A DNA stretch of 64,000 nucleotides from Octopus vulgaris (Eukaryota). The stretch spans positions 97,526,001 to 97,590,000 of the forward strand of contig OX597817.1 of assembly GCA_951406725.2 (NCBI GenBank), read 5' to 3'. The position numbers were made by a program, and so were the translations under genes. Position 1 is the first letter of the stretch. Each line of letters opens with the position of its first letter. Of the stretch, positions 5,638 through 64,000 are shown in pieces. The notes below the pieces were generated by a model, which saw nothing but the letters and a program-made list of their open reading frames with translations, searched no databases and was not told the DNA's origin.

Positions 5638-6135
5638 CATCATCATCATCATCATCGTTTAACGTCCGCTTTCCATGCTAGCATGGGCTGGATGATTTGA
5701 CTAAAGTCTGGCGAACCAGATGGCTGCACTAGGATCCAGTCTGATCTGGCAGAGTTTCTACAGCTGGATGCCCTGCCTAATGCCAACCGCTCCAAGAGTG
5801 CAGTGGGTGCTTTTACGTGCCACTGGCATGAGGGCCAGTCAGGCAGTACCGGCAATGGCCACGCTCAAATGGTGCTTTTTATGTGCCACCTGCACAGGAG
5901 CCAGTCCAGCGGCACTGGCAATGACCTTGCTTGTAAGTTTTTTCGCATGCCACCAGCACAATTGCCAGTAAGGCTACGCAGGTAACGATCATGCTCAAAT
6001 GGTGCTTTTTACGTGTCACCAGCACGGAAGCCAGTTTGTTGCTCTGGCAACAATCACACTCAGATGGTACTCTTAGCACTCCACTAGTACGGAAGCAGTC
6101 ATTGAATTTGATTTCGATTTCACTTGCCTCAAAAA
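5638..6135 (-). mobile_element. RTE 3'UTR fragment with (TGA)n tail
   Basis: catcatcatcgtttaacgtccg tail plus ~56-bp internal repeats (ggtgctttttacgtgccacc...) shared with 6336-6830 and 55500-55860. Confidence 0.8.
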
Positions 6136-8672: not shown

Positions 8673-9884
8673 TTAACCCTTTCATTACTAACCTGGCCAT
8701 ACCAGGCCGAGAGAACCTATTGTTATTTAAATGTAAATTTGAACCCAAATCTCATTGGTACATTCGTTAAAACACATGATTTCACTTTGTAAATAGTTGG
8801 GTTATAGTATCCGAAATTGCTTGACCTGATATCTAAACTCAGTGAATTTTGGGAGATTTTTTTTCCACATTTTTTTCAGCATCGATTTTTCTTCAACTTT
8901 GAAAATGGATAGGAGTTTCATGTTATCAAGCATTGATTCCAAATTTAAAGCTTTTTCAACGGAAAATAGGGAGATATCGAGAAAAAGAATGAATGAGGTA
9001 CAAAAGCACATGGTGTACGAGAATGAATAGGATATTTCGGTATCCGAAACTGAAAGCAGCGATTCTGAAGAAACTGAAAGCAGCGATAGCAACAGCAAAG
9101 ATGATTTTACATCGGAATGAAGTAAAAATGTTTTTATTAGTAATTTTTCTGAGGAGATAGGGTCTATCCATAGTCTTTCTTAGGAAGCGAAACCGTTAGA
9201 CTTTTATTTGTTTCAGTATGCTTGTTTGAAGTGATCACTGTTACGCAGAATGTAAACAAACACAAAATGGGAGATCAAAGTTTGGAAAATTTGTGAAGCA
9301 AATACTGGGTACTGTTGTGGATTTAGTTTTTATACAGGGAAAATAATGTTAGTCAGCATGGCCTAGGGAACGATGTGGTCTGGAATTTATTACTTCCATA
9401 CCATAACCAGGACCGTATATTATTTTTTGACCAATTTCTTTAGTTCGGTCAAACTTGCTGTGGATTTAGGTGGATTCCAATATTTCAGTTTATTCCACCT
9501 TTATGGTACACCTGTTCTGTTGTGCAGTAAATTCAACTGATGATCTATTGATGTGCACAATTCTTCTTTATCAAAATTTTGTTGCATACCCAATTGAATA
9601 TTAGCTGATGATTCATTTTCTAAACAAAACTTTAATATTTTTACCTTTTGCTCAGTTTACCGGGATTTACCTGTAATTAAAGTCACTTTGAGACAAAAGT
9701 TATGCAATAGAATTGATTAAGAACCCTTTCTTTAATTATGTTCCAAATATTACATTAATATGTTGATAAGTAAAAAAGTTACAGTTATTTAATGAAACAA
9801 GCCTAAATTCATGATTATTTTAGAATTTAATTGAAACTCATGAGGGGTGTATTTTGGTCAGAAATATAGTAACGAAAAGGTTAA
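8673..9884 (+). mobile_element. Non-autonomous piggyBac element inserted in the RTE
   Basis: TTAA-CCCTTTCATTAC...GTAACGAAAAGG-TTAA. Removing it restores the RTE frame MDDGALGFNDSAKKEAW. Confidence 0.9.
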
Positions 9885-20115: not shown

Positions 20116-21511
20116 CTGAATAATGCAAGGAAACAAAATATAAACAAAATAGTAAGCATTTTAATACTTCCTACATTATATATGTTGACATCAATTTACC
20201 TCTCTGCCTGTTATCTGTTTAATACTTCCTACATTAAATATGTTTACATTAACATATCGTTGTCTGCTTATATGTCTCTCTAACTTACCACACATCTATT
20301 TCTAGTTAACACATTCAGTGTTCTTTTCTATTAAAAATATCACCTCTACCTCAACTCAACCAGTTTAGTTATTATGACCTATAACCAAAAAAAAAAAACA
20401 GTAACATTTACACGCCGTCCTTTTTTTGTTTTTAACAAAACAGAAAGACTTTTAAAAGCAGAATATCAACTGTGTCATCAACAAATATATGTTTAAGAAG
20501 TTTCACAATGTAGTTCCAGGTTCAATTCCATAACACAGCACCCCCGGCAGGTATCTTGTACAATTGTCTAATGGTACTCAATAACTTGTGAGAGGAATCT
20601 GGTAGATAAAAGTTGTGTAGAATGATATTATAAATAAATATCATAAATATATATATTTGTATGTATAGTTTTTGCTGATATATATCAGCAAAGGATACAA
20701 ACACTAGCATGGAAAAAAGCAGAACTTTACAAACCAAATACCTTGAGATATAGACTGAGTTAAAGACACTCCTTTATCATTGTTGTCATTAGAAATGCAA
20801 TGAATTGGTTCACTGGAAATTTGTAACAAATGATCCTATTGGTCACCCATTATGATCATTCTCAATGCCCACTTTTCAGTGCTAGAATGGGTCAAATGGA
20901 ATTTGTTGAAGCAGATTTTCTACAGCCAGATGTCCTTACTGTTTCCAACCTCACCTGTTCCAAGTAAGGTAGTATTTTCCCTGACCAGACATGTTTTACA
21001 TGGAACACTTGAAGCAAGCAACATTGCTTGTATGAAATTGATGCTTGTTTATAATCATATCAAAACAAAGGTACATACAAAACACACACACACGTATGAC
21101 ACGCTTTTTTTCTGTTTCTGTTTACCACATATACTCACAAGGTTTGGTCAGCCCAGTGCTCTAGTGAAAGACATTTATCCAAGGTGCAATGCAGTGAAAC
21201 TGAATCGAAACTACATAGTAGAGGGGAAGCTTCTCAACCACAAAGCCATACTACACATCAAATAAACATATTTAGCAATGGTACTGCCCCTCATCAAAAA
21301 TAAGCCTCTTTAACTATGGTATTGCTCTTCATTAATAATAAGTCTCTTTAACTAGGTCACTGCACTTCATCAAAATAAAGAAGATTAAACAACATAGATA
21401 TGGAGAGAAAAGGGATATTAAATGCTAATTAACAAGAATAAATGGCGAAATATGTTGAAATATCATCCTTCTTATTGTAGTAAACCACAAGTAAACAAAT
21501 TTCTTTTTTAC

Positions 21512-21657
21512 CTCCATGAACATACAACTCGTCCAGTATTTCTTTGTCAAGATGTTGTAAAGTTAGATATTCCTTGCCATCTGTGGTGTATATCACATCA
21601 ATAAGTTTCAGTTCAAGTAGCTTTGATACTACTTCAACAACATTTTTCTCTGATAAC
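21512..21657 (-). CDS. UFL1: UFL1 coding exon 2
   Basis: tttcag|G...G|gtaaaa. [48 protein letters not shown] matches UFL1 LSERNCIEIVNKL...TLDGKEYIT...DELHVRGG. Confidence 0.95.
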
Positions 21658-24600
21658 CTGAAATATAAACGACAATATATGAAAGCCTTCACTTTAACAT
21701 AAAGACTATGAAACTGCACATATTTTCTAAAGATCACTGCTTAAATAATTAATCACAATAACAGAAACTCCTACATAACATTGTTTGTATCTCCAGAAAA
21801 TACTTTAGTCTCCAACTACTAATTCCCTACAAAACTCAAGGATGAGACCCACAATGGAATGCTGTTCCCATAACTAAATGCAGATACACACAGACACCAT
21901 AGAACACCTCCATACAAAGGCTACTCCACAACTGACAGGAAGTTACTCACCAACATACTTCAATCTATCCCACAGACAAGCTGTCTATTCTCTGTTTTTT
22001 CTACTGCTACTATAGTGATCTCTGCTATTTTTAGCTACCTGGTCTTGCACTACCTCCACTCAAGGATATCAAATTCAGCTGTCTCTCTGAGGCTCCACAG
22101 TAACCCATACAATCAGCCTTTCCTCTCCAAATTGTCAGCTGTCTGGAATTTCCACCCTGCTCCCAACTTATAAATGTTCAAGAACATTAACAACATCAGT
22201 CTCAATAGTTTCAAAAAGTTTGTGAAGACCATCAGCACAGACTCTTCCTTAAGAGAAAACCAATAAAAAACATAGTTGCTATCTAACCAGACACTTACTG
22301 AAAGTAACACATTCTCTAGTTATTCAGATTGGTCCTCTTCCTCTCAAATTATCAGAGGTAGCCTCAAATAATAGAAATGGGCTCAAACTAATTTGAGGCA
22401 ATCTCAAGCTACAATTAACAATGTAGAAAATGATGACTCTTAAAGAGTAAGTAAGAATCTTAATAATCATTAGTGAGTAGGCTTTCCAACTCTAAAAGCT
22501 GTTGTCCATATTTGTAAAACTATATCATCTCATAGAAGCTTGTATGAAAATAGATTTTAGAGAGTAAACATTGTATAGTAAGGAGAACAAGCAGTCATGT
22601 GTCTTGCTCATGAGACACTGAACAGCAATTGCAAAAGTTTTAAACTTTTGACTATGTTGTTAATTAGTGGTTCAGCTATTCACAGCTGTTGTGCTTCATA
22701 AATATTTAATTGAACAACTTTCAAATTTATATCTTAAATTAGAATCAACATGGGATTTATGCTGTTTTCCTCTTGAAAATGTTGAAGATACCTCAAATTG
22801 TCAGTTTGAACTCTTGGCCGCATATTCCAGACTTTTAGGAGAATACACTAGAATTGATTCAGGATTATAGTAATTTTTTTTTATGTTTCAGACATTGGGC
22901 TGTGACCAATTTGTTGCACCATGTTCAAGGGTTGAATACAAAAGTCATTACTACTGATTCTGGAAGGATGAAAGATAAAGCTGACCTAGGCAGAATTTGA
23001 ACACAGAAAATATTTTATCTGACACTGTAATGATTTTGCTATTCACTGCAACAGATATACTGCTTGGATTTGAACCTAGTATTTACTGTTTGTCAGCTAC
23101 AATACAGAGCATATGTTACCAAATACTATATATATATGTATCATATTATCTTGTTTTACTGACTACAATATTAACATATTGTGTAACTGACTATAAAATA
23201 GAATATCGTGTATTAGCATATTTTGTTACTGACAACACTATAGGAACATCAGATATTAACATATTTGGCATACTTTCACTACAAGAGATTTTGGCCATGA
23301 GCTTTTCCAGAGATTGAGACTGGGAGAGGAATATATTCTAAGATCAGAGAACTACTTTGAATGCTTGCAACAGAGTGGGCTCTGTTAAGAGCAACTGAGA
23401 GAAAGCTGGGTGTTAACCTGAGCAATAATGGAATAAACATCATCAACTAAAACAGTCAAGATCATGTCTTTTCTAATGTAATCTAGTGAGGTTAGATGTA
23501 CTTTCACAAAATTTTCATCTACCAAACATCATTGAAGTCTTTGGTCAACTAGAGGCCATGGAAAAGTACTCTCTGTTGAACAACTGACCACCCCAAACGA
23601 TAAATAAGTTGCTGACATACTTAAGATTGGCTTCAACAACAATGAACAATTTATCACAAGGATCAAATTAAAACCATTTGGGATGTTGAACTTGAGAATG
23701 ATGAAGGATTATTGTATGTTCACAATTCTGGTAATTATGGGCAGTATATATAGCTGTCTCACACCCAAGAGGTGTACTAACATATATCTGAATAAACAAC
23801 AACTGATCAGAAAGAGGTCTCACATATGATTTCAAAACAAGCTTAACACCCCACCCCCACCAAAATGAAAAAATGGTGCTAAACCTGACTATAATCAAAT
23901 TAGTTGAGAAGAAAACAGGTCTGAGTGTAGGAGGCCTCTTGAGAGATTACATTGATAAAAGATGAAAGTGAAACAAATGTGAAAATCAATGCCTGCTTCC
24001 TGTGCTAAAATGAAAAAAAGAAGGCATTGGAGGGGTGATGCATACCCTGTGCACACACAAGGGTATGAAATGTAATTTAATAAATATATTCTCAGACAAA
24101 TTCATATTTCAGCAAAATGACATCAAAAGTTATTTGCCCTGCATATCATTTATGCATATGTAACAAAGAAAAAAAACATTTTGATTCACCCATCTGCCAA
24201 AATTTAATGAGTTCAAGCCACTCATTCAATGAGTATTTCTGCCAAATTTGGTGAAAATTCGTTCAGCTGTTTTCCAGTAATTTTGCAAACACACAGAAAA
24301 ACAAAGATAAGTGACTACAATACCCTACTTTTGCTTTCATGTGCAGGGTAAAAAGAAAAAACAAGCATCCTTGAAATGTTGTGGACAACTAGAGTTTCGA
24401 CACATGGCTAAGCATTCTTTCATAGCCAATTAGTTTCAAATTTAGAGCTTTTGAGGATAACTTTCATATTGGAGTGTAATTCTTAAGGGGAGACCTTTCA
24501 TATATATAATAAACTAAATCAACAAGATCAAATAAATGGATGTTTTCAACTGTTTCTGGAGAACTGAAGTCAAGAACTGACCTTCTAATTCAGTGGATAT

Positions 24601-27622: not shown

Positions 27623-29067
27623 GGCACTGTCATGCTTTTAGTTGTCAGGAGGAAAGTAGAAAAAGTGTGACGTCAATTTGACGTCACTCGTCCACCTTCG
27701 TTTCTTTCCGTAGAATTTATCAAAACGCGTGTAAATTTATCAAAATAAAAAACGCAAAATTTATCAAATTAAAAAGCGCAAAATTATTCGGTAGAATTTA
27801 TCAAATTAAAAAATGCAAAATTAATATATTTTTTGAAATTGCAAATTATTTAGAATGTAAAAATATAATTTTCAACAGAGAGAATTTATCAAAATATAAA
27901 ACAAATGAAGCTTGAAGTTAAGTTTAAAAATAAATGTGATACTTATGCTCTGTAGATACTTATACTCTCTAAGGTCTCAAACACATGGATATAGCTGTCG
28001 AATTTGCTCCAATAACTTTCCAAATGTTTCGTCCTTAAATTCATAACGCCACATGAATTCGATGAGATGGGTCTGAAGTAAATTTCGGGCTGTTCCATTT
28101 TCTCTTTTGTTACGATTCTTCACATGCTTCCATAAACATTCTATATGGTTGGTTGTGGCAAATGTTACCGGATCAACAAAATTTATTGAATGATTCACGG
28201 TCAAATGCCTGTATCCTAGCTGATTGAGCGTATTATACGAACGCCAAAGGTCGGAAATTATGGTAGTACCAGGCAATATATGCTCTTGTATAATTTGCAA
28301 AAGGGTGTCCGCTGTCCGATCTTCCACTGCCACTAAAAAACATCTTCTGGTATCTCTTTCTAAAGCGCCAAAAACCCACTGCGTTTTAACCCGATGGCCA
28401 ACATTATATTTTCTTCTAACAAACGCGCTTTCGTCTATCTCTACAATTCGGTTCGGCCCTCCGAGCTTAATGTTTTGTGCAACATAATATTCTGCACATA
28501 TATCACGGCAAAAATTCCTCCAATCTGTTACGGCTACATTTGCTATATGACATTCCTGTCCTATTCCCTTTGCTAAATTTTATTTTGCCCAATAATATAA
28601 TATATCAATAATTTGTTGACACTTCAATTTACTATTTTCTAGAAATGTTCCTTTTCTAATTGAAACCGTTTTTCTACAAGGCCTAACATGACCATATCAA
28701 TTCATCCGACAAATTTTTTTTCGCTATTTCACTCATGCTACCTCCACACGATATACATATTTTCTGGGTATTCAAAAGTCCATGTCTCTTAAGCCAATTA
28801 ATGCTATCTGGTGTTGTAGCCATGGCGATGGCAATATTGTGGTGATTAATTCCTTTTAGACTTATTGAAGCCATATTGAAAATTTTTTCGCACGTGTTGA
28901 TATCAAAGTGAAGAACTTTCAAACTTTGAATTACGTGCGGTGGTGGTCAGTGGTCATGCTGATTGGTGTATGTGATCGTGGTGGTGGTCATTTGTGCAGA
29001 TTTGGTGTGATTTCTTTTTTGTTGAGGTCTGACGTCAGATTTTTCTATTTTCACTTCTGACAGTGCC
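27623..29067 (-). mobile_element. Merlin (ISXO2/IS1595-like DDE) DNA transposon, pseudogenised
   Basis: Frame ~28580-27977 is open: VEIDES...QWVFG...PGTTIISDLWRSY...HLTVNHSINFVDP...TNHIECLW. N-terminal CISC zinc ribbon at 28683-28922. Termini GGCACTGTCA / TGACAGTGCC. Confidence 0.88.
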
Positions 29068-42893: not shown

Positions 42894-43069
42894 CTAAAAG
42901 AGAAATGAAGTTCATTTGTTAGACAATGTTGTATAGAAAGTTATTCCTAATGCCGTCTGCCTTAAATCTTTACATCTTTTTACAGAAGACCTATATACCT
43001 CTGTACCTCCCTTTAAAAGTTTTTTAAAAGAATATTTGTATAATGTTCAAATACAAGTGGCATTTTCCT

Positions 43070-43336
43070 TGTTTCTGCCTGTCTCTGTGTCTCTTGCTTA
43101 CTCTTGTGGGTTGGAGGTCATTGTGAATTCTTGGTAGAGGAGGAGGAGAAGAAGAAGAATGTGGGAGTACAAGACAGTAGTATGTTGAATGGTTTTTGGG
43201 GGCTGCTGACCATTCAACATACTACTGTCATGGTACTCCCACATTCATCTTCTCCTCCTCCTCCTCCTCTACCAAAAATTCACAATGACCTCCAACCCAC
43301 AAGAGTAAGCAAGAGACACAGAGACAGGCAGAAACA
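43070..43336. repeat. Long near-perfect hairpin (arms 43070-43193 and 43209-43336, 15-nt loop)
   Basis: Direct reverse-complement match of the two arms. Confidence 0.92.
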
Positions 43337-43559
43337 GTCCATAGTAGTAGTCACTGTTCAATTCATGAAACATCTCTTTTGAATATTTTTTTTACAAAAT
43401 TTGCATAGGTGTTATTCTAAACAACAATAGTGGTAAGGTTAAGAAGGAAACAAAGAAGGAGGAGAAGGAAGAATAAGAAGGAATGTAGGTAGTGTGAAAG
43501 TAGTAAGGTGTTAAATGTTCAAATGACTTAAAATTGGCACGTTATGGATTATAGCAGTG

Positions 43560-44600
43560 ATTGGGACTGTTTTTTAATGAATTGTTGGGAATCTCTTGAG
43601 TGTATCATTTTTAATATTTGCGTGTGTATTTGTGTTATTCTAAGGCATTGGTGGATATGTTGTTTGTTGTAGACGCATTCAAAAAGGGTCTGTATTTCGT
43701 AATAAAGAGTCTCTTTACTAATTCGTTGGCTCCAGGTTGCATCATCCTTGAATTGGTAGAGGGGAAAAATTCTGAAGCTTGGATTTTTGTTATTGGTGCA
43801 AATGTCTGTGTTGGCTGAATGCTATTTTTCTGTTTTGGGGAATTTTGATCTGGTATCTGTGCAGAGCCATTCTTTTACGTAGACTGATTTTTGTTTGGCC
43901 TATGTATCGCTCTTGACACCCAGAGCAGGTTAGTGTATATATAAGGTTCTCCGAAGCACATGTGAAGTTGCTTTTCCCTGTGAAACGTTGTCACTGTTTG
44001 AAGGAGAACTTTGATCCCTCAATTAAATTGACGCATGTCCCACAGTTGGGTCTTCCGCATTTTTTTACTGACGGCTTCTGTGTTGTTGAGCGTATTCGGG
44101 CTTGTGTTAGGAGACTTGGGTTGTCTCTTGCTTTTATGATGGTGTGTGTTTGGAGGACTAAAATTCTTTCTGTGGGTATGTTTTGGAGGATGGTGTCGAA
44201 GGCTTCATTGTTGAGAGGGTTGTGTGTGGAGATGTGTGATAAGGCTTTTGGTTGTAAATCTCTCTTTAATTTGGGATGTCTGCGTTCCTGAATGTTGAGT
44301 TGAAGGGCATGTTGAAAGCATATGTCAATTAGTGAAGGTGGGTAGTTCCTGGTGATGAGTGTATCCTTTAGTTCATGTAGTCATGTATCTCTGGTGCTTG
44401 CGTTAGAAACTATGGTACATATCCTTTTTGCTAGGTTGAAGGACATATTCATTCTGGTGTGTCTGGGGTGGCATGAGTTGAACGGTAGATATTGCTTGGA
44501 ATCTGTAGGCTTATAGTATATATCTGTTTCTAATACATTGTTAGATTTCTTAATGAGGATGTCGAGGAAGGGAAGTTGTTGCTGGCTATATTCAGCGAAT
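43560..44600 (-). mobile_element. Penelope-like element 3' part (RT C-terminus plus GIY-YIG endonuclease), degenerate
   Basis: LPFLDILI...TDIYYKPTDSKQYLPFNSCHP; FTCASENLIYTLTCSGCQERYIGQT. Confidence 0.88.
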
Positions 44601-47372
44601 TTGATTTCACTTGCCTGAACAGGTCTTTGCAAGCAGAGCTTAGTGTCCAATGAAAGAAAGGCATGCATAAGTGGGCTGGTTACACCCCTGATATAGGCTA
44701 CGAGGTTATGGTCTCACTTGGCTTGCTGGGTCTTCTCAAGTACAGCATATTTCCAAAGGTCCCGGTCACTAGTCATTGCCTCCGTGAGGCCTAATGTTCA
44801 AAGGTTGTGCTTCACCACCTCGTCCCAGGTCTTCCTGGGTCTACCTCTTCCGCAGGTTCCCTCAAAAGCTAGGGAGTGGCACGTTTTCACACAGCTATTC
44901 TCATCCATTCTCACCACATGACCATACCAGCGCAGTCGTCTCTCTTGCATACCACATCTGATGCTTCTTAGGTCCAACTTTTCTCTCAAGGTACTTACAC
45001 TCTGTCGAGTATGCACACTGACATTACACATCCAATGGAGTATACTGGCTTCATTCCTTGCGAGCTTACGCATGTCCTCAGCAGTCATGACCCATATTTT
45101 ACTGCCATGTAGCATGGCTGTTCATATACATACGTCATACAGTCAACCTTTTACTCTGAGTGAGAGGCCCTTTGTCACCAGCAGAGGTAAGAGCTCTCTG
45201 AACTTTGCCCAGGCTATTCTTATTCTAGCAGCTACACTTTCAGCGCACCCTCCCCTGCTACTGACTTGGTCACCTAGGTAACTGAAGCTATCAACTACTT
45301 CTAGTTTTTCTCCCTAGAATGTGGCAGAAGTTGTTCTCTGCACATTTTCAGTGTTTATTGCTCCTGAGCATCTGCCACATGCAAAAACTATCTTCCCAGT
45401 TAGCCTTCTTTTGATATTGCTGCACCTCGTCTGTGTTCATAGCTTACACTGGGTACATCTTATAGAGTTTCTACCTATGCTTTTCCTACACATCGAGCAG
45501 GGCCATCTCTCTGAAGGGATTTGTGGTTTGCTTGCCTTCCTACTTATTAGGACTTTGGTTTTAGCTAGGTTGACTTAAGGGCCCTTCAATTCTAATCCTT
45601 GTTTCCACACCTGAAACTTCTCTAGTTCTGATAGTGACTCAGCAATTAGAGCAAGGTCATCAGCATAGAGGAGCTCCCAGGAGCATCCTGTTTTTAATTC
45701 CTCTGTTATTGCCTGGAGGACTATGATAAATAGGAGGGGATTAAGGATTGGTGGACCCCTACCTCTACTCGGAATTCTTCACTGTACTCATTGCCAACCC
45801 TCACCTTTCTGACAGCGTCCCTGTACATGGCTTGCACAGCTCTCACTAACTATTCATCTATCCCTAGTTTCCTCATTGACCACCAGATAAGGGATCAGGG
45901 GACCCTGTCAAAGGTTTTCTCCGTGGCAACGAAAGCCAGGTACAGAGGTTTATCTTTGGCTAGGTATTTTTCCTCAGTTGTCTTACCACAAACATAGCAT
46001 CAGTGGTGCTTTTCCCTGGCACTAACCCAAACTGCATCTCATCTAAACTGACTCTCTCCCTAATTAGTTGGGCTATGATCTTCTCCATGACCTTCATTAC
46101 CTGATCCAACAACTTGGTACCTCTGTAATTATTTGTGTCTAAAGCGTCACTTTTACCGTTGCAGCATTTGACTATAGTGCTGCTACACCAGTCATTGGGT
46201 ATGACTCCTTCATGTATCACCTGGTTAACTATACGGGTGACTAGGCTATAGCTGACACTGCCAGATATTTTGAGCATCTCTGCAGTGATTCCTGATGGGC
46301 CAGGGGCTTTCCCTGTCTTCATACTCTTAATTGCTTTATCTACCAAGGTACTGTCAACTCGGATAGCTGGTCCCTCTGTTGGGTCGACATTCGGCAGACT
46401 CTTTTTCTCCCATTCATTTTCTTTAACGAGCAATCTTTCATAGTAACATCACCAAACCTCTCTCTTTGCAGCCTTGTTTAGTGCAAGTGAGCCATCATCC
46501 ATGCAGACACATTTCTCTCCTACAACATCACGATTCTCTCTCAAACACTGGCTTACAATACAAAATACCTCCAGTCTTTGGTCCTCATGGCACAGAACAT
46601 TGGCAAATTTTTTCTTATCCGCTTTCCCTCTCGCTAAGTAAACCTGTCTCCTAGCTTCTCTTTTCGCAGTCTGATACAATTCCCTGCTACCACTGTTCTT
46701 CCAGTCCTCCCAAGCCTGTTTCTTTTCTCTAATAACCCTGTCAACAACATTGTTCCACCACCACGTTATTTTGGGTTGAGAGGGGACTTTGCACTGTCCA
46801 TAGATCTGTCAGTGGCCCTCAGCATGTTGCCCCATAGAAACTGCCAGTTGTCTTCTACATCATGTGATGCTATATCCCCTTCTATTTTGTCAAAGGCTTT
46901 GAGTAATATGTCTCTAAATTTCTGTCCATTTGCAAGATTTTTAAGCTTCCAGACCCTTCTCCTCCATGCTGGTCATATTCTGGGCATCCACTTAGCACTG
47001 ATCCTGAAGTCATTAACTACCAGTCTATGTTGTGGGGTACATTCTTCGCCTGGGGAAGGTTTGGGCATTTATAAGCAACCATCTTTCCCCTTTTCTGGTG
47101 AGGATGTAGTCAATTTGGCTAGTGTGTCTGCCAGAATGGTAGGTGACTGGCAGGTTTCCTGAAGTTAGTGTTGCAAACCATATGGTCATTTCCATCGCAG
47201 AACTCCAGCAGCCTGGTTCCCTCCTCATTGCAGGAACCAAAACCGTAGCCTCCATGTACGCTATGGAAGCCCCCTGTGAGTTGTCCAACATGTCCAATGA
47301 AGTCACCAGCCACAAAGAGAAGGTCCCTGTCATTCGTCAACGAGGTAGTCTGCAAGAGGGTGTCATAGAATT
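44600..47372 (-). mobile_element. 5'-truncated degenerate RTE LINE
   Basis: Same family as 61570-64000 (partial EN, RT, PHD, RGRPRKTW C-terminus) with frameshifts. Confidence 0.9.
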
Positions 47373-53500: not shown

Positions 53501-53795
53501 AGCAAGTTTTTATTATTTCTTTTAGGAGACAATTAAGTTTTTTAATTTCTTTTGGGAGACAATTTTTTTTTTTTATTTCTTTTGAGAGACAAGTTTTTTT
53601 TTATTTGTTTTGGGAAACAAAGAAATAAAAACCTTAATTGTCTCCCAAAAGAAATAAAAAACTCAATTGTCTACAAATAAATATAATAAAGATATGTAAA
53701 TGTTGTGCTGTAAATGCACAGAATTTTGTACTATTTCACTCTGTTGAGAAAACTTTGCTACTTTTATCAGTATAAATATATATATAATATATGAT

Positions 53796-55868
53796 AGTGT
53801 CGGCTATAGCCTAGTCACCTCTGGCAGTGTCGGCTATAGCCTAGTCACCCGTATAGTTAACCAGGTGATACACGAAGGAGTCATACCCAATGACTGGTGT
53901 AGCAGCATTACAGTCAACTGCTACAAAGGCAAAGGTGATGCTTTAAATACAAATAATTACAGAGGTATCAAGTTGTTGGATGAGGTAATGAAGGTCACGG
54001 AGAAGTTCATAGCCCAACTAATTAGGGAAAGAATCAGTTTAGATGAGATACAGTTTGGGTTAGTGCCAGGGAAAAGCACCACTGATGCTATATTTCTGAT
54101 AAGACAGCTGCAGGAGAAATATCTAGCCAAAGATAAACCTCTGTACATGGGTTCCGTTGACATGGAGAAAGCTTTTGATCTCTTATCTGGTGGTCAATGA
54201 GGAAACTAGGGATAGATGAATGGTTAGTGAGAGCTGTGCAAGCCATGTACAGGGACACTGTCAGTAAGGTGAGGGTTGGCAATGAGTAAAGAGAAGAATT
54301 CCGGGTAGAGGTAGGCGTCCACCAAGGTCCAGTCCTTAGCCCCCTCCTATTTATCATAGTCCTCCAGGCAATAACAGAGGAATAAAAGACAGGATGCCCC
54401 TGAGAGCTCCTCTATGCTGATGACCTTGCTCTAATTGCTGAGTCACTATCAGAACCAGAGAAGTTTCAGGTGTGGGAACAAGGATTAGAATCGAAGGGCC
54501 TTAGAGTCAACCTTGCTAAAACCAAAGTCCTAATAAGTAGGAAGGTAGGCAAACCACAAACCCCTTCAGGTAGATGGCCCTGCTCGATCTGTAGAAAAGG
54601 TGTTGGTAGAAACTCTATACGATGTACCCAGTGCAAGCTATGGACACATAAGAGGTGCAGCAATGTCAAAGGAAGGCTAACTAAGAAGATAGCTTTTGTA
54701 TGTGGCAGATGCTCTGGTTCAATAAAGACTGAAAATGCGCAGAGACCATCTTCCGCCACATTCCAGGGAGAAAAACTTGAAATAGTTGATAGTTTCCGTT
54801 ACCTAGGTGACCAAGTCAGTAGCGGGGGTGGGTGTGCCGAAAGTGTAACTGCTAGAGTAAGAATAGCCTGGGCAAAGTTTAGAGAGCTCTTACCTCTGCT
54901 GGTGACAAAAGGCCTCTCGCTCAGAGTAAAAGGCAGACTGTATGACGCATGTGTGCGAACAGCCATGCTACATGGCAGTGAAACATGGGCCGTGACTGCT
55001 GAGGATATGCGTAAGCTCACAAGAAATGAAGCCAGTATGCTCCATTGGATGTGTAATGTCAGTGTTCATACTCGACAGAGTGTAAGTGTCTTGAGAGAAA
55101 AGCTGGACCTAAGAAGCATCAGATCTGGTGTGCAAGAGAGGCGTCTACGCTGGTATGGACACGTAGTAAGAATGGATGAAGATAGTTGTGTGAAAAAGTG
55201 CCACACCCTAGCGGTTGAGAGAACCTGTGGAAGAGGTAGACCCAGGAAAACCTGGGACGAGGTGGTGAAGAACGACCTTAGCGCTTTAGGTCTCACCGAG
55301 GAAATGACCAGAGACCGAGACCTTTGGAAGTATGCTGTACGCGAGAAGACCCGGCAGGACACGTGAGGCCATAACCCATGACGTAGTCAATCCACCTGTG
55401 CATACCTTCCTTCTTGGGACACATAACTCTACTTGTGAAGACCTGTTGAGGCAAGTGAAAATCAAATCAAATGAAAATCGCTGAACATCAATGGAATTTG
55501 TATTTTTGGGGTACCAGTGCCGGTGGCACATAAAAAAAACCATCCGAATGTGGCCGTAGCCAGTACCCCATTGACTGGCTTCTGTGCTGTGGGCACATAA
55601 CAAACACCACCCAATCAGGGCCGTGCCAGCCTCGCCTGGCCTCCGTGCCGGTGGCACGTAAAAAACACCATCCGAGCATGGCCGTTTGCCAGCCTCGTCT
55701 GGCACCTGTGTCGGTGGCACAAAAAAACACCATCCGAGCGTGGCCGTTCGCCAGCCTCGTCTGGCACCTGTATCGGTGGCACATAAAAAGCACCCTCTAC
55801 ACTCACGGAGTGGTTGGCGTTAGGAAGGGCATCCAGCTGTAGAAACTCTGCCAGATCTGACTGGCCTG
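53796..55868 (+). mobile_element. 5'-truncated RTE LINE (RT, PHD, 3'UTR without tail)
   Basis: ORF 54470-55366 contains the C4HC3 PHD and the C-terminus; stops and frameshifts upstream; 3'UTR repeats at 55500-55800. Confidence 0.9.
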
Positions 55869-55869
55869 A

Positions 55870-57398
55870 CTTGTCTAGGTTGACTCTCTCTCTAATCAGT
55901 TGGGCTATGACCGTTTCCGTAACCTTCATTACCTGATACAACAGCTTAATACCTCTGTAATTACTTGTATCTTTGTAACAGTTGACTATTATGCTACTAC
56001 ACCAGTCATTGGGTATGACTCCTTCATGTATCACCTGGTTAACTATACGGGTGACTAGGCTATAGCCAACACTGCCAGATATTTTGAGCATCTCAGCAGT
56101 AATTCCTGATGGGCCTGGGGCTTTCCCTGTCTTCATGCTTCCAATTGCCTTAACTACCATGGAACTGTCAACTTGGATAGCTGGTCCCTCTATTGGGTCG
56201 ACATTCGGCAGACTCTCTTTATCCCATTCATTCTCTTTGTTGAGCAACCTTTCATAGTGGCATCTCCAAACCTCTCTCTTTGCATCCTCATTTAGCGCAA
56301 GTGAACCATCGTCCATGCGAACACATTTCTCTCCTACCACATCACGATTCTCTCTCACACACTGTCTTGCAACACGAAGCACCTCAAGTCTTTGGTCCTC
56401 ACGGCGCAGAACATTGGCAAATTTTTTCTTATCTGCTTCTCCTCTAGCTAAATATACCTGTCTCCTAGCTTCTCTTTTCGCAGTCTGATACAATTCCCTA
56501 CTACCGCCTTTCCTCCAGCCCTTCCAAGCCTGTCTCTTGTCTCTAATAGCCCTGTCTACAACATTGTTCCACCACCACGTTACCCTGGGACGAGATGGGA
56601 CTTTGCTCCATCCACAGATCTGGTCAGTCGCTCTCAGCAAATTGTCCCATAGAAACCTCCAGTTGGCTTCCACATTATGTGATGCTATATCCCCTTCTAT
56701 TTCGTCGAAAGTTTCGAGTAGAACTTCTCTAAATCTCTGTCCATTTACAGGATCTTTAAGTTTCCAGACTCTTCTCCTCTGAGCTGGTCTTCTTCTGGGC
56801 AGCCATTTGGCCCTGATCCTGAAGTCGCTAACTACTAATCTATGTTGAGGAGTACATTCCTCGCCTGGGAAGGGTTTGGCATTTATAAGCAGCCCTCTTT
56901 CCTCTTTCTGGCGAGGATGTAGTCGATCTGGCTAGTGTGTCTGCCAGAACGGTAGGTGACTAGGTGAGAGGTGGGTTTCCTGAAGCTGGTATTGCAAATC
57001 ATAAGGTCATTTGCATCGCAGAACTCCAGCAGCCTGGTTCCCTCCTCATAGCAAAAAACAAAACCGTAGCCCCCGTGTATGCCATGGAAGCCCCCGACAT
57101 GCCATCCAACATGTCCATTGAAGTCACCTGCCACAAAGAGAAGGTCACTGTCATTTGTCAACGAGGTAGTCTGTAATAGGGTGTCATAGAATCTGTCCTT
57201 CTGATAGCCCCGGCTGAGGGGCATATGCCGAGATAATGGTTGCTGACCTATGATAAAGCACTAGTCTAATCTTAAGTATTCTGTCACATACTATGACTAC
57301 CTCGACTACCTTATCAACCCATTTCTCTGCAAGAAGTATACCCACGCCCCCAACCCCGTCAGTGTTCCCTGCCCAGAAAATCTTGTACCTGTGTTCCA
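55870..57398 (-). mobile_element. RTE LINE internal fragment (EN to RT start)
   Basis: HRYKIFWAGNTDGVGGVG, GDFNGHVG, KAPGPSGITAEML; truncated at both ends. Confidence 0.9.
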
Positions 57399-57491: not shown

Positions 57492-57666
57492 ATATATATA
57501 ATAGTTATCGCCATACTAATATGGCATTCTTAAAAATAAGAATAAAGCTGTCGCTGATTAGCTCCATGAAGCCATCGCCTCAAGCTAGCTACTTGACACA
57601 CAAACTGCGTCCGTTATTAAACCTTCGAACAGGGGAGGTCAGCCGCTTCAACCTGCTAGTCCGACA

Positions 57667-57709
57667 GCTACAGACATGTTTCAGGGTTGTTGCCCCTTCT
57701 CAATGCAGC
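57667..57709 (-). ncRNA. Minimal type I hammerhead ribozyme, U3-A8 core variant
   Basis: Minus strand GCUGCA-UUGAGAA-GGGG-caacaa-CCCU-GAAA-CAUG-UC^UGUAGC: stems I and II pair, palindromic loop III. Confidence 0.75.
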
Positions 57710-58013
57710 GTAGTCAGACCTGCAGGTGTCGCTACTGACTGTCTCCGTTCGAAGATTCTATTTACCTAGTTACGGTGGAATACATCCACTTGTTTTCAAT
57801 AATAGAAATATTAAAATTACTAAGTCACTTTAAACGAGATTATGAAAGCGTTTCTGGAAATTAATAGTTATCGCCATACTAATATGGCATTCTTAAAAAT
57901 AAGAATAAAGCTGTCCGCTTATTAGCTCCATGATTAGTATGGCGATAACTATTAATTTCAGAAACGCTGTCGTAATATCTTTTAAAGAGATTAGTAATTT
58001 TAATATTTCTATT

Positions 58014-58032
58014 ATATATATTAATATATATA

Positions 58033-58081
<49 letters not shown>

Positions 58082-58290
58082 ATATATTTATATATATTTA
58101 AATATATATATTTGTATATATATATATTTGTATATATATATTTGTATATATATATATTTGTATATATATATTTGTATATATATATATATGTATATATATA
58201 TTTGTATATATATATATGTTTAGATATATATTTGTATATATATATATTTGTATATATATATATTTGTATATATATAATAGAAATATTAAT
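58014..58290. repeat. (TA)n-rich microsatellite; other tracts at 57400-57500, 58780-58967, 17237-17280, 11810-11842
   Basis: Direct inspection. Confidence 0.95.
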
Positions 58291-58566
58291 TATATATGGA
58301 TACAGTTTGTGTATCAAATAGCTAACTTAAGGCGATGGCCTCATGGAGCTAATAAGCGGACAGCTTTTTTCTTATTTTTATAAGAATGCCATATTAGTAT
58401 GGCGATAACTATTATTTTCCGGGAACGCTGCCGCTGTTCTCTTTTAGAGAGACTTAGTAATTTTAATATTTCTATTATTGAAAACAAGTGGATGTATTCC
58501 ACCGAAACTAGGTAAATAAAACCATCGAACAGAGATTGTCGGAAGCGACACCTACTGGCTGGGTAC

Positions 58567-58608
58567 GCTGCATTGAAAAGGGGCAATACCCCGAAACGCA
58601 TCTGTAGC
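58567..58608 (+). ncRNA. Minimal type I hammerhead ribozyme, U3-A8 core variant
   Basis: GCUGCA-UUGAAAA-GGGG-caaua-CCCC-GAAA-CGCA-UC^UGUAGC; predicted cleavage after 58602. Confidence 0.72.
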
Positions 58609-58898
58609 TGCCGGTCAAGTAGTGTGGAGCGACTGACCTCCCTTGTTCGAAGGTTATATGGATACAGTTTGTGTATCAAATAGCTAACTTAAGGCGATGG
58701 CCTCATGGAGCTAATAAGCGGACAGCTTTTTTCTTATTTTTATAAGAATGCCATATTAGTATGGCGATAACTATTATTTTGTATATATATATATTTGTAT
58801 ATATATATATTTATATATATATATTATATATATATATATATATATACGTGTATATATATATATACGTGTAAATATATATATGGGTATATATATATATT

Positions 58899-58967
<69 letters not shown>

Positions 58968-58970
<3 letters not shown>

Positions 58971-60414
58971 GCTACACCTTCAGAGAAAACACAGACTTCC
59001 AAAAATGGCCAGCTAAGTCAATTTCATCCTGCTCTTTTCATATTTTTAAGCGTTTTGTTTGGATAGCTTGATCTGTTCTCCCTTCGTTCCCCTATTCTCT
59101 AAACATGGCGACTTCATGCATTGCATTTTTAAAGTTTATTTTCCTTCAGGGCCATCTTCGATGTTTATCCATTCTCCTCCGAAATATGCCCCCTCGTCTC
59201 TTACCGTATCTTTTTTCATTATTTATCTATTCTCATTCTCTACCGTATTTTTTTCATTATTTATCTATTTCCATTCTCTACCGTATTTTTATTATTTATC
59301 TATTTTCATTCTCTCTCTGGCTTTCATTCAGTCATTTATCTAATTAATTATTTTTCCCCCTCAAATATAGTATTCAAACTAGTTGCTTCAATTCTCTCTC
59401 TCTCTCTCTCTCTCTCGTGTTTCCGTCCCCTTCCCTAATTCCCTTATAAAAGCCAGCGTGCGATCGTATCTGATCCCTATTCACTCGCTACACCTTCAGA
59501 GAAAACACAGACTTCCAAAAATGGCCAGCTAAGTCAATTTCATCCTGCTCTTTTCATATTTTTAAGCGTTTTGTTTGGATAGCTTGATCTGTTCTCCCTT
59601 CGTTCCCCTATTCTCTAAACATGGCGACTTCATGCATTGCATTTTTAAAGTTTATTTTCCTTCAGGGCCATCTTCGATGTTTATCCATTCTCCTCCGAAA
59701 TATGCCCCCTCGTCTCTTACCGTATCTTTTTCATTATTTATCTATTCTCATTCTCTACCGTATTTTTTTCATTATTTATCTATTTCCATTCTCTACCGTA
59801 TTTTTTATTATTTATCTATTTTCATTCTCTCTCTGGCTTTCATTCAGTCATTTATCTAATTAATTATTTTTCCCCCTCAAATATAGTATTCAAACTAGTT
59901 GCTTCGATTCTCTCTCTCTCTCGTGTTTCCGTCCCCTTCCCTAATTCCCTTATAAAAGCCAGCGTGCGATCGTATCTGATCCCTATTCACTCGCTACACC
60001 TTCAGAGAAAACACAGACTTCCAAAAATGGCCAGCTAAGTCAATTTCATCCTGCTCTTTTCATATTTTTAAGCGTTTTGTTTGGATAGCTTGATCTGTTC
60101 TCCCTTCGTTCCCCTATTCTCTAAACATGGCGACTTCATGCATTGCATTTTTAAAGTTTATTTTCCTTCAGGGCCATCTTCGATGTTTATCCATTCTCCT
60201 CCGAAATATGCCCCCTCGTCTCTTACCGTATCTTTTTCATTATTTATCTATTCTCATTCTCTACTGTATTTTTTTCATTATTTATCTATTTCCATTCTCT
60301 ACCGTATTTTTTATTATTTATCTATTTTCATTCTCTCTCTGGCTTTCATTCAGTCATTTATCTAATTAATTATTTTTCCCCCTCAAATATAGTATTCAAA
60401 CTAGTTGCTTCGAT

Positions 60415-60445
<31 letters not shown>

Positions 60446-60934
60446 TTTCCGTCCCCTTCCCTAATTCCCTTATAAAAGCCAGCGTGCGATCGTATCTGAT
60501 CCCTATTCACTCGCTACACCTTCAGAGAAAACACAGACTTCCAAAAATGGCCAGCTAAGTCAATTTCATCCTGCCCTTTTCATATTTTTAAGCGTTTTGT
60601 TTGGATAGCTTGATCTGTTCTCCCTTCGTTCCCCTATTCTCTAAACATGGCGACTTCATGCATTGCATTTTTAAAGTTTATTTTCCTTCAGGGCCATCTT
60701 CGATGTTTATCCATTCTCCTCCGAAATATGCCCCCTCGTCTCTTACCGTATCTTTTTCATTATTTATCTATTCTCATTCTCTACCGTATTTTTTTCATTA
60801 TTTATCTATTTCCATTCTCTACCGTATTTTTTATTATTTATCTATTTTCATTCTCTCTCTGGCTTTCATTCAGTCATTTATCTAATTAATTATTTTTCCC
60901 CCTCAAATATAGTATTCAAACTAGTTGCTTCGAT

Positions 60935-60965
<31 letters not shown>

Positions 60966-61419
60966 TTTCCGTCCCCTTCCCTAATTCCCTTATAAAAGCC
61001 AGCGTGCGATCGTATCTGATCCCTATTCACTCGCTACACCTTCAGAGAAAACACAGACTTCCAAAAATGGCCAGCTAAGTCAATTTCATCCTGCTCTTTT
61101 CATATTTTTAAGCGTTTTGTTTGGATAGCTTGATCTGTTCTCCCTTCGTTCCCCTATTCTCTAAACATGGCGACTTCATGCATTGCATTTTTAAAGTTTA
61201 TTTTCCTTCAGGGCCATCTTCGATGTTTATCCATTCTCCTCCGAAATATGCCCCCTCGTCTCTTACCGTATCTTTTTCATTATTTATCTATTCTCATTCT
61301 CTACCGTATTTTTTTCATTATTTATCTATTTTCATTCTCTCTCTGGCTTTCATTCAGTCATTTATCTAATTAATTATTTTTCCCCCTCAAATATAGTATT
61401 CAAACTAGTTGCTTCGATT
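58968..61419 (+). repeat. Tandem array of ~506-520-bp monomers (4 full plus 1 partial), probably the 5' promoter array of the adjacent RTE
   Basis: Units start at 58968, 59484, 59990, 60510 and 61030. They are near identical except for (CT)n length. Each full unit ends in (CT)n...TATAAAA...TATTCACTC. Confidence 0.9.
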
Positions 61420-61569
61420 TTGTCGCCCGCCCTCCCACCACCAATACCGGAAGTTTCTACCCTAATACCGGAAACTACCCCCTCCCCCACTAGCACCTAT
61501 GTAGGGTTTATCTGAACATATAGCGCAAAAATTGTGAAAAGTATGCAGGTTGTAGTCTAGAGTTTCCAT

Positions 61570-64000
61570 ATGAAATCTGCCAAATGCAAGCTTTCTTTTC
61601 AGGTACATGACACTGCTGTCCCTCGTCCCAGGGTCTCTGATGCCCACACCTCCCAAACCCTCAGAGTTGGCACGCTCAACGTTGGCACATTGAAAGGTAG
61701 GTCTGGAGAGATTGTAGAGCTGCTTGAACGGAGACGTGTGGATGTATGCTGTATCCAGGAAGTAAGGTGGAGAGGAGGTTCTGCTAGGCTCCTCACGGGC
61801 AAGGAACACAGGTACAAGATTTTCTGGGCAGGGAACATTGACGGTGTCGGGGGCGTGGGTATACTTCTTGCGGAGAAATGGATAGGTAAGGTAATCGAGG
61901 TAGTCAGAATAAGTGACAGAGTAATTAAAATTAGATTAGTTCTTCACCATAGGACAGCTACCATCATCTCGGCATATGCCCCTCAACCAGGGCTACCGGA
62001 AGGACAAAAAGACCAATTCTATGACACCCTATTGCGGACTACCTCATTGACAAATGACAGTGACCTTCTCTTCGTGGCAGGTGATTTCAATGGACATGTT
62101 GGACGACATGTCAGGGGCTTCCATGGCATCCATGGAGGCCACGGTTTTGGCTCTCGAAATGAGGAGGGAACCAGGCTGCTGGAGTTCTGCGATGCAAATG
62201 ACCTTATGGTCTGCAATACCCACTTCAGGAAACCCACCTCTCACCTAGTCACCTACCGTTCTGGCAGACACACCAGCCAGATTGACTACATCCTTGCCAG
62301 AAAAAGGGAAAGAGGGCTGATTATAAATGCCAAAACCTTCCCAGGCGAAGAATGTACTCCCCAACATAGATTAGTAGTTAGCGACTTCAGGATCAGAGCT
62401 AAATGGTCGCCCAGAAGAAGACCAGCTTGGAGGAGAAGGGTCTGGAAGCTTAAAGATCCTGCAAATGCACAGAGATTTAGAGACATACTACTCGAAGCCT
62501 CTGACGAAATAGAAGGGGATATAGCTTCACTTAATGTGGAAGACAACTGGAGATTCCTACGGGACAATCTGCTGACAGCCACTGACCAGATCTGTGGATG
62601 GAGCAAAGTACCATCTCGACCCAGAGTAACATGGTGGTGGAACACGGTGGTTGACGGGGCTATTAGACAAAAGAGACAGGCTTGGAAGGACTGGAAGAAC
62701 GGTGGTAGCAGGGAATTGTATCAGACAGCCAAAAGGGAAGCTAGGAGACAGGTTTATATAGCCAGAGGGGAAGCGGATAAGAAAAAATTTGCCAATGTTC
62801 TGAGCCGTGAGGATGAAAGACTTGAGGTATTTCGTGTTGCAAGACAGTGTGTGAGAGAGAATCGTGATGTGGTAGGAGAGAAGTGTGTTCGCATGGATGA
62901 TGGTTCACTTGCGCTAAATGAGGATGCAAAGAGAGAGGTTTGGAGATGCCACTATGAAAGTTTGCTGAATAAAGAAAATGAATGGGATAAAGAGAGTCTG
63001 CCAAATGTTGACCCAACAGAGGGACCAGCTATCCGAGTTGATAGTTCCGTGGTAGCTAAGGCAATTAGAAGCATGAAGACAGGGAAAGCCCCAGGCCCAT
63101 CAGGAATTACTGCAGAGATGCTCAAAATATCTGGCAGTGTCGGCTATAACCTAGTCACCCGTATAGTCAACCAGGTGATACACGAAGGAGTCATACCCAA
63201 TGACTGGTGTAGCAGCATACTAGTCAACTGCTACAAAGGTAAAGGTGATGCCCTGGATACAAATAATTACAGAGGTATCAAGCTGTTGGATCAGGTAATG
63301 AAGGTTACGGAGAGGGTCATAGCCCAACTAATTAGAGAGAGAGTTAGTTTAGATGAGATGCAGTTTGGGTTTGTCCCAGGGAAAAGCACCACTGATGCTA
63401 TATTCCTGGTAAGGCAGCTGCAGGAGAAATACCTAGCCAAGGATAAGCCCCTGTACCTGGCTTTTGTTGACATGGAGAAAGCCTTTGATAGGGTCCCCCG
63501 ATCCCTCATCTGGTGGTCAATGAGGAAACTAGGGATAGATGAATGGCTGGTGAGGGCTGTGCAAGCCATGTACAGAGATGCCGTAAGTAAGGTTAGAGTT
63601 GGCAACATGTACACAGAAGAATTCAAAGTAGAGGTTGGGGTCCACCAGGGTTCAGTACTCAGCCCCCTCCTATTTATCATAGTCCTCCAGGCAATAACGG
63701 AGGAATTCAAGACAGGTTGCCCCTGGGAGCTCCTCTATGCTGACGACCTCGCTCTAATCGCTGAGTCACTATCAGAACTGGAGGAGAAGTTCCAGGTGTG
63801 GAAGGAGGGTTTAGAATCGAGGGGCCTTAGAGTCAACCTAGCTAAAACCAAAGTACTAATAAGTAGAAAGGTAGAAAACCCACAAATATCATCAGGAAGA
63901 TGGCCCTGCTCGATCTGTAGAAAAGGTGTAGGTAGAAACTCTATAAGATGTACCCAGTGTAAGCTATGGACACATAAGAGGTGCAGCAATGTCAAAGGTA
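61570..64000 (+). CDS. RTE-clade LINE ORF: APE endonuclease, reverse transcriptase and PHD finger; uninterrupted, runs off the window
   Basis: Hand translation from ATG 61570 gives 810 codons with no stop: TLNVGTL, CIQEVRW, GDFNGHVG, QIDYIL, KAPGPSG, FVDMEKAFD, GVHQGSVLSP, LYADDL, CSIC...CTQC...HKRC. Confidence 0.93.
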   Translation, partial: MKSAKCKLSFQVHDTAVPRPRVSDAHTSQTLRVGTLNVGTLKGRSGEIVELLERRRVDVCCIQEVRWRGGSARLLTGKEHRYKIFWAGNIDGVGGVGILLAEKWIGKVIEVVRISDRVIKIRLVLHHRTATIISAYAPQPGLPEGQKDQFYDTLLRTTSLTNDSDLLFVAGDFNGHVGRHVRGFHGIHGGHGFGSRNEEGTRLLEFCDANDLMVCNTHFRKPTSHLVTYRSGRHTSQIDYILARKRERGLIINAKTFPGEECTPQHRLVVSDFRIRAKWSPRRRPAWRRRVWKLKDPANAQRFRDILLEASDEIEGDIASLNVEDNWRFLRDNLLTATDQICGWSKVPSRPRVTWWWNTVVDGAIRQKRQAWKDWKNGGSRELYQTAKREARRQVYIARGEADKKKFANVLSREDERLEVFRVARQCVRENRDVVGEKCVRMDDGSLALNEDAKREVWRCHYESLLNKENEWDKESLPNVDPTEGPAIRVDSSVVAKAIRSMKTGKAPGPSGITAEMLKISGSVGYNLVTRIVNQVIHEGVIPNDWCSSILVNCYKGKGDALDTNNYRGIKLLDQVMKVTERVIAQLIRERVSLDEMQFGFVPGKSTTDAIFLVRQLQEKYLAKDKPLYLAFVDMEKAFDRVPRSLIWWSMRKLGIDEWLVRAVQAMYRDAVSKVRVGNMYTEEFKVEVGVHQGSVLSPLLFIIVLQAITEEFKTGCPWELLYADDLALIAESLSELEEKFQVWKEGLESRGLRVNLAKTKVLISRKVENPQISSGRWPCSICRKGVGRNSIRCTQCKLWTHKRCSNVKG

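Follow-up and report, generated by a model that had tools for sequence, protein, structure and literature searches.

Two copies of a hammerhead ribozyme lie on opposite strands of the stretch of Octopus vulgaris DNA analysed here (64,000 nt, hereafter the window), each of them inside a repeat that codes for no protein. The locus raises the question of how such a repeat spreads, that is, which machinery mobilises it and whether a circular RNA is the template that is really copied. For animal retrozymes, both points are left open in the available text of PMC7229834 and bioRxiv 10.64898/2026.07.22.740005. The repeat constitutes a good test case for the spread of non-coding, ribozyme-bearing repeats. 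The reading that we favour, with a probability of roughly 0.6 for the whole chain, is that its 362/363-bp unit is a non-coding, non-autonomous non-LTR retrozyme whose circular RNA is copied by Penelope proteins. In a more tentative version of this reading, the genome would preserve the traces of a Penelope machinery that reverse-transcribes an animal retrozyme in rolling-circle fashion, and the U3-A8 (and A3-U8) core would hide both the Penelope helpers and the retrozyme from standard ribozyme searches. Since the family is young, its priming sites are mapped and Penelope families with intact frames share its genome, a single purified protein and an RNA of 362 nt may suffice to test the question.

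Two insertions of the repeat in the window

Regular arms of the repeat end only at site A (unit position 362) or at site B (62 nt further), and these ends face outward. The features of the window that bear on the question are the following.

43020..44605, minus strand: Penelope-like element copy, broken, 5'- and 3'-truncated, with reverse transcriptase (RT), C-terminal GIY-YIG and a cysteine linker of Neptune/Nematis type
57499..57933, minus strand: left insertion, long arm, subfamily 2a, 1.2 units (435 nt), whose 3' end lies at site A (57499) and faces a TA/TG tract
57667..57709, minus strand: type I hammerhead with the core U3-U4-G5-A6-G7-A8-A9, CAUG as loop III and a predicted cut at 57673/57672
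57934..58015, plus strand: left insertion, short inverted arm, with its 3' end at site B (58015)
58016..58273, no strand: TA-rich microsatellite between the two insertions, the presumed target
58274..58289, minus strand: right insertion, 16-nt inverted arm that ends at site B
58293..58778, plus strand: right insertion, long arm, subfamily 1, 1.35 units (486 nt), with its 3' end at site A followed by (TA)n
58451..58514, plus strand: best-conserved stretch of the unit, with a pair of hairpins around site B (58478), from the alignment and predicted helices
58522..58653, plus strand: predicted long rod that extends hammerhead stem I, with 5' truncations at its 3' base (unit positions 221-238)
58567..58608, plus strand: type I hammerhead, core 58573-58579 (U3 58573, A8 58578), predicted cut 58602/58603

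The hammerheads of the original prediction, one on each strand, both fold as claimed, with the core UUGA(A/G)AA, a 6-bp stem I, a 4-bp stem II, GAAA, four nucleotides and UC, and direct repeats with the proposed periods of 362 and 363 were recovered. A relaxed scan of the 64-kb window gave these two U3-A8 matches and one poor, AT-rich C3-G8 match. What had been described as two monomers are indeed two diverged ribozymes on opposite strands, in arms that are 86% alike (blastn), but they belong to two separate two-armed insertions of two subfamilies, which lie in a single TA-rich tract. In the left insertion the arms join head to head at about 57928-57934, and in the right one the long arm comprises the unit 58417-58778 and has its 5' end at unit position 239, beside the hot spot of 5' truncation. 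Neither insertion can release a unit-length RNA by double cleavage, because each of them has one ribozyme.

Loop III had been given as CAUG or CGCA. CAUG is a state of the family, but CGCA is a private mutation of the palindromic CGCG: the A at 58600 is peculiar to the copy of the window, with G in 129/133 subfamily-1 pieces, and contigs of four public runs (four organisms) that cover the plus-strand ribozyme also read G there. Compared with the family loop, CGCA is predicted to weaken the duplex of the palindrome, from -7.5 to -2.3 kcal/mol. As a separate observation, the 5'-most 20 nt of the left arm (57914-57933) carry subfamily-1 letters and the remainder is subfamily 2a, possibly as a result of a template switch or of conversion from the neighbour.

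A young family dispersed over the genome

A genome-wide search for the motif, proposed with the original prediction, found 1,309 exact matches of a tight ribozyme pattern with U3 and A8 in the 2.8-Gb assembly and 0 with a reversed-pattern control, so the motifs of the window are not a product of chance. The same tight pattern with C3 and G8 had 0 matches genome-wide, and no hammerhead family of Rfam was matched at E up to 10 in 3 kb and two 81-nt stretches, which bears out the suspicion that standard descriptors would miss this family. At least 1,309 ribozyme copies of this one family thus escape both Rfam and C3-G8 descriptors, so that animal hammerhead counts are lower bounds.

Of the motifs at the two conserved ends, one gave 4,058 matches genome-wide with one mismatch allowed and the other 1,955 with two allowed. 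The copies are dispersed over many contigs, and the subfamily of the plus-strand copy is young: of 1,134 candidates 40 were scored, and dozens of these are 99% copies. The unit is non-coding, 362/363 bp long and 41% G+C; none of its ORFs has any match or is of note, and no tRNA-like head was found in it. Arrays reach about ten units, the largest one fetched having 9 full units and parts, all of them pure units, in one 3,572-nt arm. The tandem non-coding units, the type I hammerhead and the dispersed copies support the retrozyme-like family that had been claimed. The repeat stretch was also found in 20 sequencing-run entries (10 studies, six organisms), none of them listed as RNA and 14 guessed to be so, a result that has no bearing on expression. 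Likewise, the four public runs consist of assembled contigs only, three of them with uncovered bins; their depth is not readable as expression, and they show neither ends nor informative joints.

Insertion ends point to Penelope machinery

The first set of insertions comprises 111 loci chosen by a full-unit or ribozyme match, a count that excludes the window locus and overlapping duplicates (7 of L002-L060 and 12 of L111-L140). Among them, 56 are simple two-armed insertions whose two ends both fall on A or B; an A end is combined with a B end in 54/56, the other two being one A+A and one B+B (binomial p 2e-14). The remainder consists of 13 two-armed loci with an end elsewhere, 31 single arms and 11 complex loci. 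The second set contains 33 further insertions picked by end motifs and not by the ribozyme, L227 having been dropped as a local duplicate. Here all the simple two-armed insertions with regular ends (17/17) were A+B, three more with a middle piece were also A+B on the outside, one had an irregular end and 12 were single. Both sets together give 71/73 simple two-armed insertions with the A+B combination.

The surroundings and the inner ends of the arms are equally distinctive. The sequence (TA)3 is touched by 132/153 A/B ends vs 9/31 5' flanks, and target duplications of 8-16 nt were seen in six hand-picked loci with less repetitive flanks, duplications not being visible inside (TA)n. The two arms of an insertion are not mirror images at the joint. 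Their 5' ends pile up at unit positions 221-238, where 28/153 arms end within 18 nt, about three times the typical bin, and in the unselected set 8/46 arms have 5' ends in positions 217-238. This pile-up may reflect an RT that meets a stable RNA helix at the 3' base of the rod. One locus, L248, contains two insertions (1407-3374 and 5884-6784) that belong to different subfamilies and are separated by 2.5 kb; in each of them the A arm is 137 nt long and begins at unit position 225.

A tail at one end, inverted 5'-truncated copies and a (TA)n bias are described traits of Penelope elements (PMC8557442; PMC3846280, in the parts available). In vitro, the Penelope tail is the stretch between two RT start sites, and both DNA strands are cut and extended (PMC11167929, available part). 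A 784-aa Penelope family of the octopus genome follows the same type of A+B rule in 6/6 two-armed loci among 19 fetched, with a 39-nt tail. The repeat itself has two 3' ends, an inverted truncated arm and an AT-rich target, and it is very likely that Penelope machinery mobilises it. In this sense, the Penelope mobilisation that had been proposed gains support from the insertion anatomy, with A+B ends, inverted arms and one haplotype per insertion.

The template RNA and a proposed cycle

Both arms of an insertion share their haplotype. In a comparison drawn from 45 subfamily-1 insertions, they agree at two common variant sites in 39/39 insertions (shuffled mean 0.47, maximum 0.72) and over 13 sites in 40/41, and tandem units within arrays share rare variants. 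A uniform donor array predicts the same haplotype pattern as a circle. From the predicted cut it is 176 nt downstream to site A and 238 nt to site B, therefore a cleaved linear monomer could give no longer arm. We rejected such a monomer as template, since the arms run through the cut instead of stopping there: in the sets that had been chosen for long matches 114/153 arms cross it, 33 of these at least twice, and in the unselected set 17/46 cross it, with one arm that stops within positions 180-196 and four more at 199-200. Arms that cross the cut, often repeatedly, call for a template that is either a circle or an uncleaved multimer, and we lean towards the circle as the main one.

The cycle would begin with the transcription of tandem genomic copies, by read-through or from some promoter. 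Structure and literature suggest that the U3-A8 type I hammerhead would then cut after GUC, best as a dimer held by the palindromic stem III, and that the unit-length RNA would be ligated into a circle. A Penelope-like RT/GIY-YIG protein, to which the observed footprints point, would nick both strands of AT-rich, mostly (TA)n DNA, and reverse transcription would start at A and B, 62 nt apart, one on each strand. The products would be two cDNAs of variable length that, as the arms do, often run past the cut and round several units and often stop at the rod base; their joining head to head would give an inverted insertion with the tails outward, A at one end and B at the other. A more specific version of this cycle is tentative, and we give it rather less than an even chance: one 362-nt circle would be copied twice per event by a Penelope dimer that primes both strands and rolls up to ten times, the U3-A8/A3-U8 core would have spread through helpers and parasite, and loci where repeat and Penelope sequence are mixed would stem from one complex carrying both RNAs.

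The template could instead be an uncleaved linear multimer from donor arrays, with rare cutting or 5' trimming, and circles that are absent or a dead end. The missing stop at the cut fits uncleaved RNA equally well, and uniform arrays exist as possible donors. Furthermore, the ribozyme of a purified anole Penelope was dispensable in vitro, with uncleaved RNA as the main substrate (PMC11167929, available part), and 8/9 of the frog retrozyme dimers tested were without cleavage according to the available text of bioRxiv 10.64898/2026.07.22.740005. However, arms of 5 to 10 units need equally long donors while truncation shortens each generation, and all five clusters retain the letters of the core, the palindrome and the loop, which argues for a ribozyme under selection. 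Related units of similar size in mussel, coral and axolotl also give abundant circles (PMC7229834, available part). We therefore consider the linear multimer unlikely as the general template and retain the circle copied by Penelope proteins as our working explanation.

Relation to the local Penelope elements

The original prediction named the element at 43.6-44.6 kb as a possible helper. It is a real Penelope-like element, from a 784-aa family that has a U3-A8 hammerhead; but this family shares no detectable sequence with the monomer, and for this reason it is only one candidate mobiliser. The window copy (43020..44605) is without the hammerhead of its family and is physically separate from the 362-bp repeat. 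Pfam found nothing on the two broken Penelope fragments of the window and identified RT and GIY-YIG in the intact 784-aa family frame; many intact Penelope frames of 781-785 aa are present in the genome. A cysteine linker precedes the nuclease and agrees with the Neptune/Nematis type in the description of PMC8557442 (available part). No blastn match above AT-rich noise was found between the unit and the fetched Penelope families, including their terminal repeats. The tail of the unit is 62 nt vs roughly 30-40 nt in most of these families. A Penelope family at L058 was considered for a matching 60-nt tail and rejected, its tail being about 38 nt. At L091:1570-2907, a frame of ~440 aa with no clear Pfam match overlaps and precedes the 784-aa frame and starts just after site B, a layout that is possibly frameshifted or two-frame.

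A translated search of the 181 fetched repeat loci revealed nine with a Penelope match, and in three of them it adjoins the repeat (L058:113-1789, L161:820-1543 and L121:1299-2190). Each of the three has one Penelope outer end and one repeat outer end, and they join mid-ORF to different Penelope families, the L058 part being 99% identical to a young family. We do not take these mixed loci as proof of co-mobilisation, as the four-part order is also expected from a deletion between two-armed neighbours; since such a deletion explains them no worse than a shared insertion does, we keep them only as a lead. L121 also has an inverted local copy of the Penelope-repeat junction (800-1030), some 270 nt beyond the insertion.

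The ends of Penelope type, the U3-A8 hammerheads in terminal repeats of several local Penelope families, and the three loci that join the repeat to Penelope coding sequence might suggest that the unit is the pseudo-LTR of an autonomous Penelope family, its copies being 5'-truncated insertions of that family. Frog retrozymes are indeed related to pseudo-LTRs (bioRxiv 10.64898/2026.07.22.740005, available text). Nevertheless, what lies upstream of a unit is another unit in exact register and never a 3' UTR with the end of an ORF (181 loci); in the same 181 fetched loci, no RT and GIY-YIG ORF with a 3' UTR running into the repeat was found. The three adjoining cases join mid-ORF and to different Penelope families, and the 6-bp stem I with its long rod is unlike the weak Penelope ribozymes. 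A pseudo-LTR origin of the copies is thus very unlikely.

Spread at the DNA level, by circular DNA or by self-priming of an antisense fold-back, with arrays arising by unequal crossover, seems to us at least as improbable. It could yield both head-to-head palindromes and arrays in tandem; for the inverted ends of Penelope, self-priming has been proposed (PMC3846280, available part), and unequal crossover is the usual satellite model (bioRxiv 10.64898/2026.07.22.740005, available text). However, fixed 3' and ragged 5' ends, the A+B rule, non-mirror joints and truncations at the rod base point to reverse transcription of a folded RNA.

The ribozyme and its U3-A8 core

The ribozyme was compared in an alignment of 40 monomers that form five clusters, 86-96% alike between clusters, 22/60 distinct full monomers having been removed at 98.5% identity beforehand. 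The persistence of core and stems in other copies, on which the original prediction depended, is evident: U3-A8 is present in 40/40 aligned monomers, as are U4, A6, A9, GAAA, U16.1 and C17, and G5 is changed once. Variation occurs at N7 (A, G or U), in the first pair of stem II (G-C in 11 monomers, G-U in 14, A-U in 15), in stem I through G-U/G-C exchange and in loop III, which alternates between the palindromes CGCG and CAUG. The outer pair of stem I is broken in one cluster, with 7/40 rows unpaired. The candidate letters for a contact between loop I and loop II (UA bulge and CAA..A loop) are invariant in 40/40. Variation within the unit is lowest outside the ribozyme, in the hairpins round site B, where 3/64 columns vary vs 92/373 overall (counted at subfamily level). 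To judge from this conservation, these hairpins are a candidate protein-binding and priming region.

Folded as a circle, the unit reaches a z of about -6 vs 60 shuffles in both subfamilies, and the sense strand is predicted to be stabler than the antisense one (-118 vs -99 kcal/mol). Covariation support for the fold is modest. Pairing, with 98.5% of cells paired, and the covariation score exceed all 500 shuffles, in a control that ignores relatedness; but both-sided changes occur in only 6/80 pairs, a count reached by 83/500 shuffles, and in a single-copy-structure test pairing was kept in 15/33 and 12/23 changed states (p 0.48 and 0.11), which does not exceed the null, and the antisense fold scored as well.

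The motif had been called a minimal hammerhead. By the definitions in the available part of PMC4209133 its geometry is that of a canonical animal type I ribozyme, with a Watson-Crick pair 3-8, GAAA, UH, stem I of 6 bp, stem II of 4 bp and a short palindromic stem III. The Penelope minimal form described there has a stem II of 7-8 bp, a stem I of 4-5 bp, a loop 1 that is ill defined, and an extra base after A9, a description that the ribozyme of this family does not match. We consider it likely that the ribozyme is active in intact haplotypes. That the fold is a chance resemblance in an ordinary repeat can practically be dismissed, for although Rfam gives nothing at E up to 10 and rod covariation is weak, the core, the three stems and the palindrome are all in place and vary only where this is tolerated, and the same core variant occurs in terminal repeats of local Penelope elements.

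U3-A8 is not new in nature, since it has already been published: the available part of PMC3088659 (section 8) describes U3-A8 as a covariation that occurs in nature and cites earlier work in which it was active in vitro, and that of PMC4209133 ties about 1,300 minimal U3-A8 motifs to the Schistosoma Penelope family Cercyon. In the octopus genome, U3-A8 hammerheads are terminal in at least four Penelope-like families, some of them with a stem II of 1-2 pairs, and were located at L092, L187-L210, L262 and L121:2040-2075. The 784-aa family, source of the 43-44.6-kb fragment, has one near its 3' end, and others belong to the 781-aa family, the L058/L262 family and the L121 family. The hammerhead of L201 reads A3-U8 (by eye), and in those of L196/L202 GCAA replaces GAAA. 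From these sequences, the ribozyme core reads as one that may be drifting lineage-wide among the local Penelope families. Canonical C3-G8 motifs are also present in fetched flanks; at L189:3056 (oriented) and in the L263 flank there is another repeat, whose hammerhead has the canonical C3-G8 pair and a long loop on stem II.

Comparison with known systems

The closest known system is that of the metazoan non-LTR retrozymes (PMC7229834, available part), especially the 350-390-bp units of mussel and the units of axolotl, the latter with a one-pair stem III and a palindromic tetraloop. The octopus unit has in common with them a non-coding tandem unit of 150-450 bp, a G+C content below 50%, the absence of an LTR/PBS/PPT layout, one type I hammerhead per unit, dispersed and tandem copies, duplications of more than 4 nt where visible, and co-occurring Penelope elements. 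In contrast, the core here is U3-A8, and circles, demonstrated in that study, are predicted in our case. The available part of PMC7229834 does not describe the strict (TA)n targeting, the pair of fixed 3' ends or the inverted arms with outward tails that we found here.

With Penelope elements of Neptune/Nematis type the insertions share the tail at one end, the inverted 5'-truncated arm, partial tandems, the AT-rich target and a palindromic stem III. The Schistosoma family Cercyon has U3-A8 (PMC4209133, available part), as do the local families and the 362-bp unit. Unlike Penelope elements, the unit has no ORF, its stems are the canonical 6 bp and 4 bp, and its tail is 62 nt instead of the usual 30-40. 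For vertebrate non-LTR retrozymes, Li, Clavereau and Pollet proposed the same relation to Penelope helpers (bioRxiv 10.64898/2026.07.22.740005, available text). That study is based on co-occurrence, distribution, phylogeny and pseudo-LTR similarity and leaves the mechanism open, whereas our argument comes from insertion anatomy, no similarity to the fetched pseudo-LTRs having been found.

By its testable features, the unit is, as far as its sequence tells, a metazoan non-LTR retrozyme. What appears to be new is a retrozyme whose ribozyme is of canonical type but has U3-A8, and which bears the footprints of two-site priming of the Penelope kind. The hammerheads of Schistosoma Sm-alpha and newt satellite 2 share with it the canonical type I geometry, an extension of stem I with an internal loop, and a loop II that is short and A-rich; they have C3-G8. 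The UA bulge and the CAA..A loop of the unit presumably resemble the letters of the tertiary contact in Schistosoma. The family and its footprints were not found in the part of the literature searched, and surveys of Penelope hammerheads could already list the family. The main text of an octopus repeat annotation, in its available part, contains neither 'ribozyme' nor 'hammerhead' (PMC13282606).

Other features of the window

Directly to the right of the repeat, a 506-520 bp tandem repeat with at least 4 copies at 98-100% extends over 58877-61515 and is unrelated to the 362-bp unit. Two minus-strand frames bear what we take to be a resemblance to known proteins, one to a UFL1 exon (21429-21740) and the other, of 200 aa, to an IS1595/Merlin-type transposase (27977-28579). 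One LINE family, which we assume to be RTE-like, has left many fragments (7205-8716, 44798-47336, 53748-56931 and 61462-63734), and tandem units of 62-66 bp accompany LINE fragments of the window at 6495-6797 and 55513-55794.
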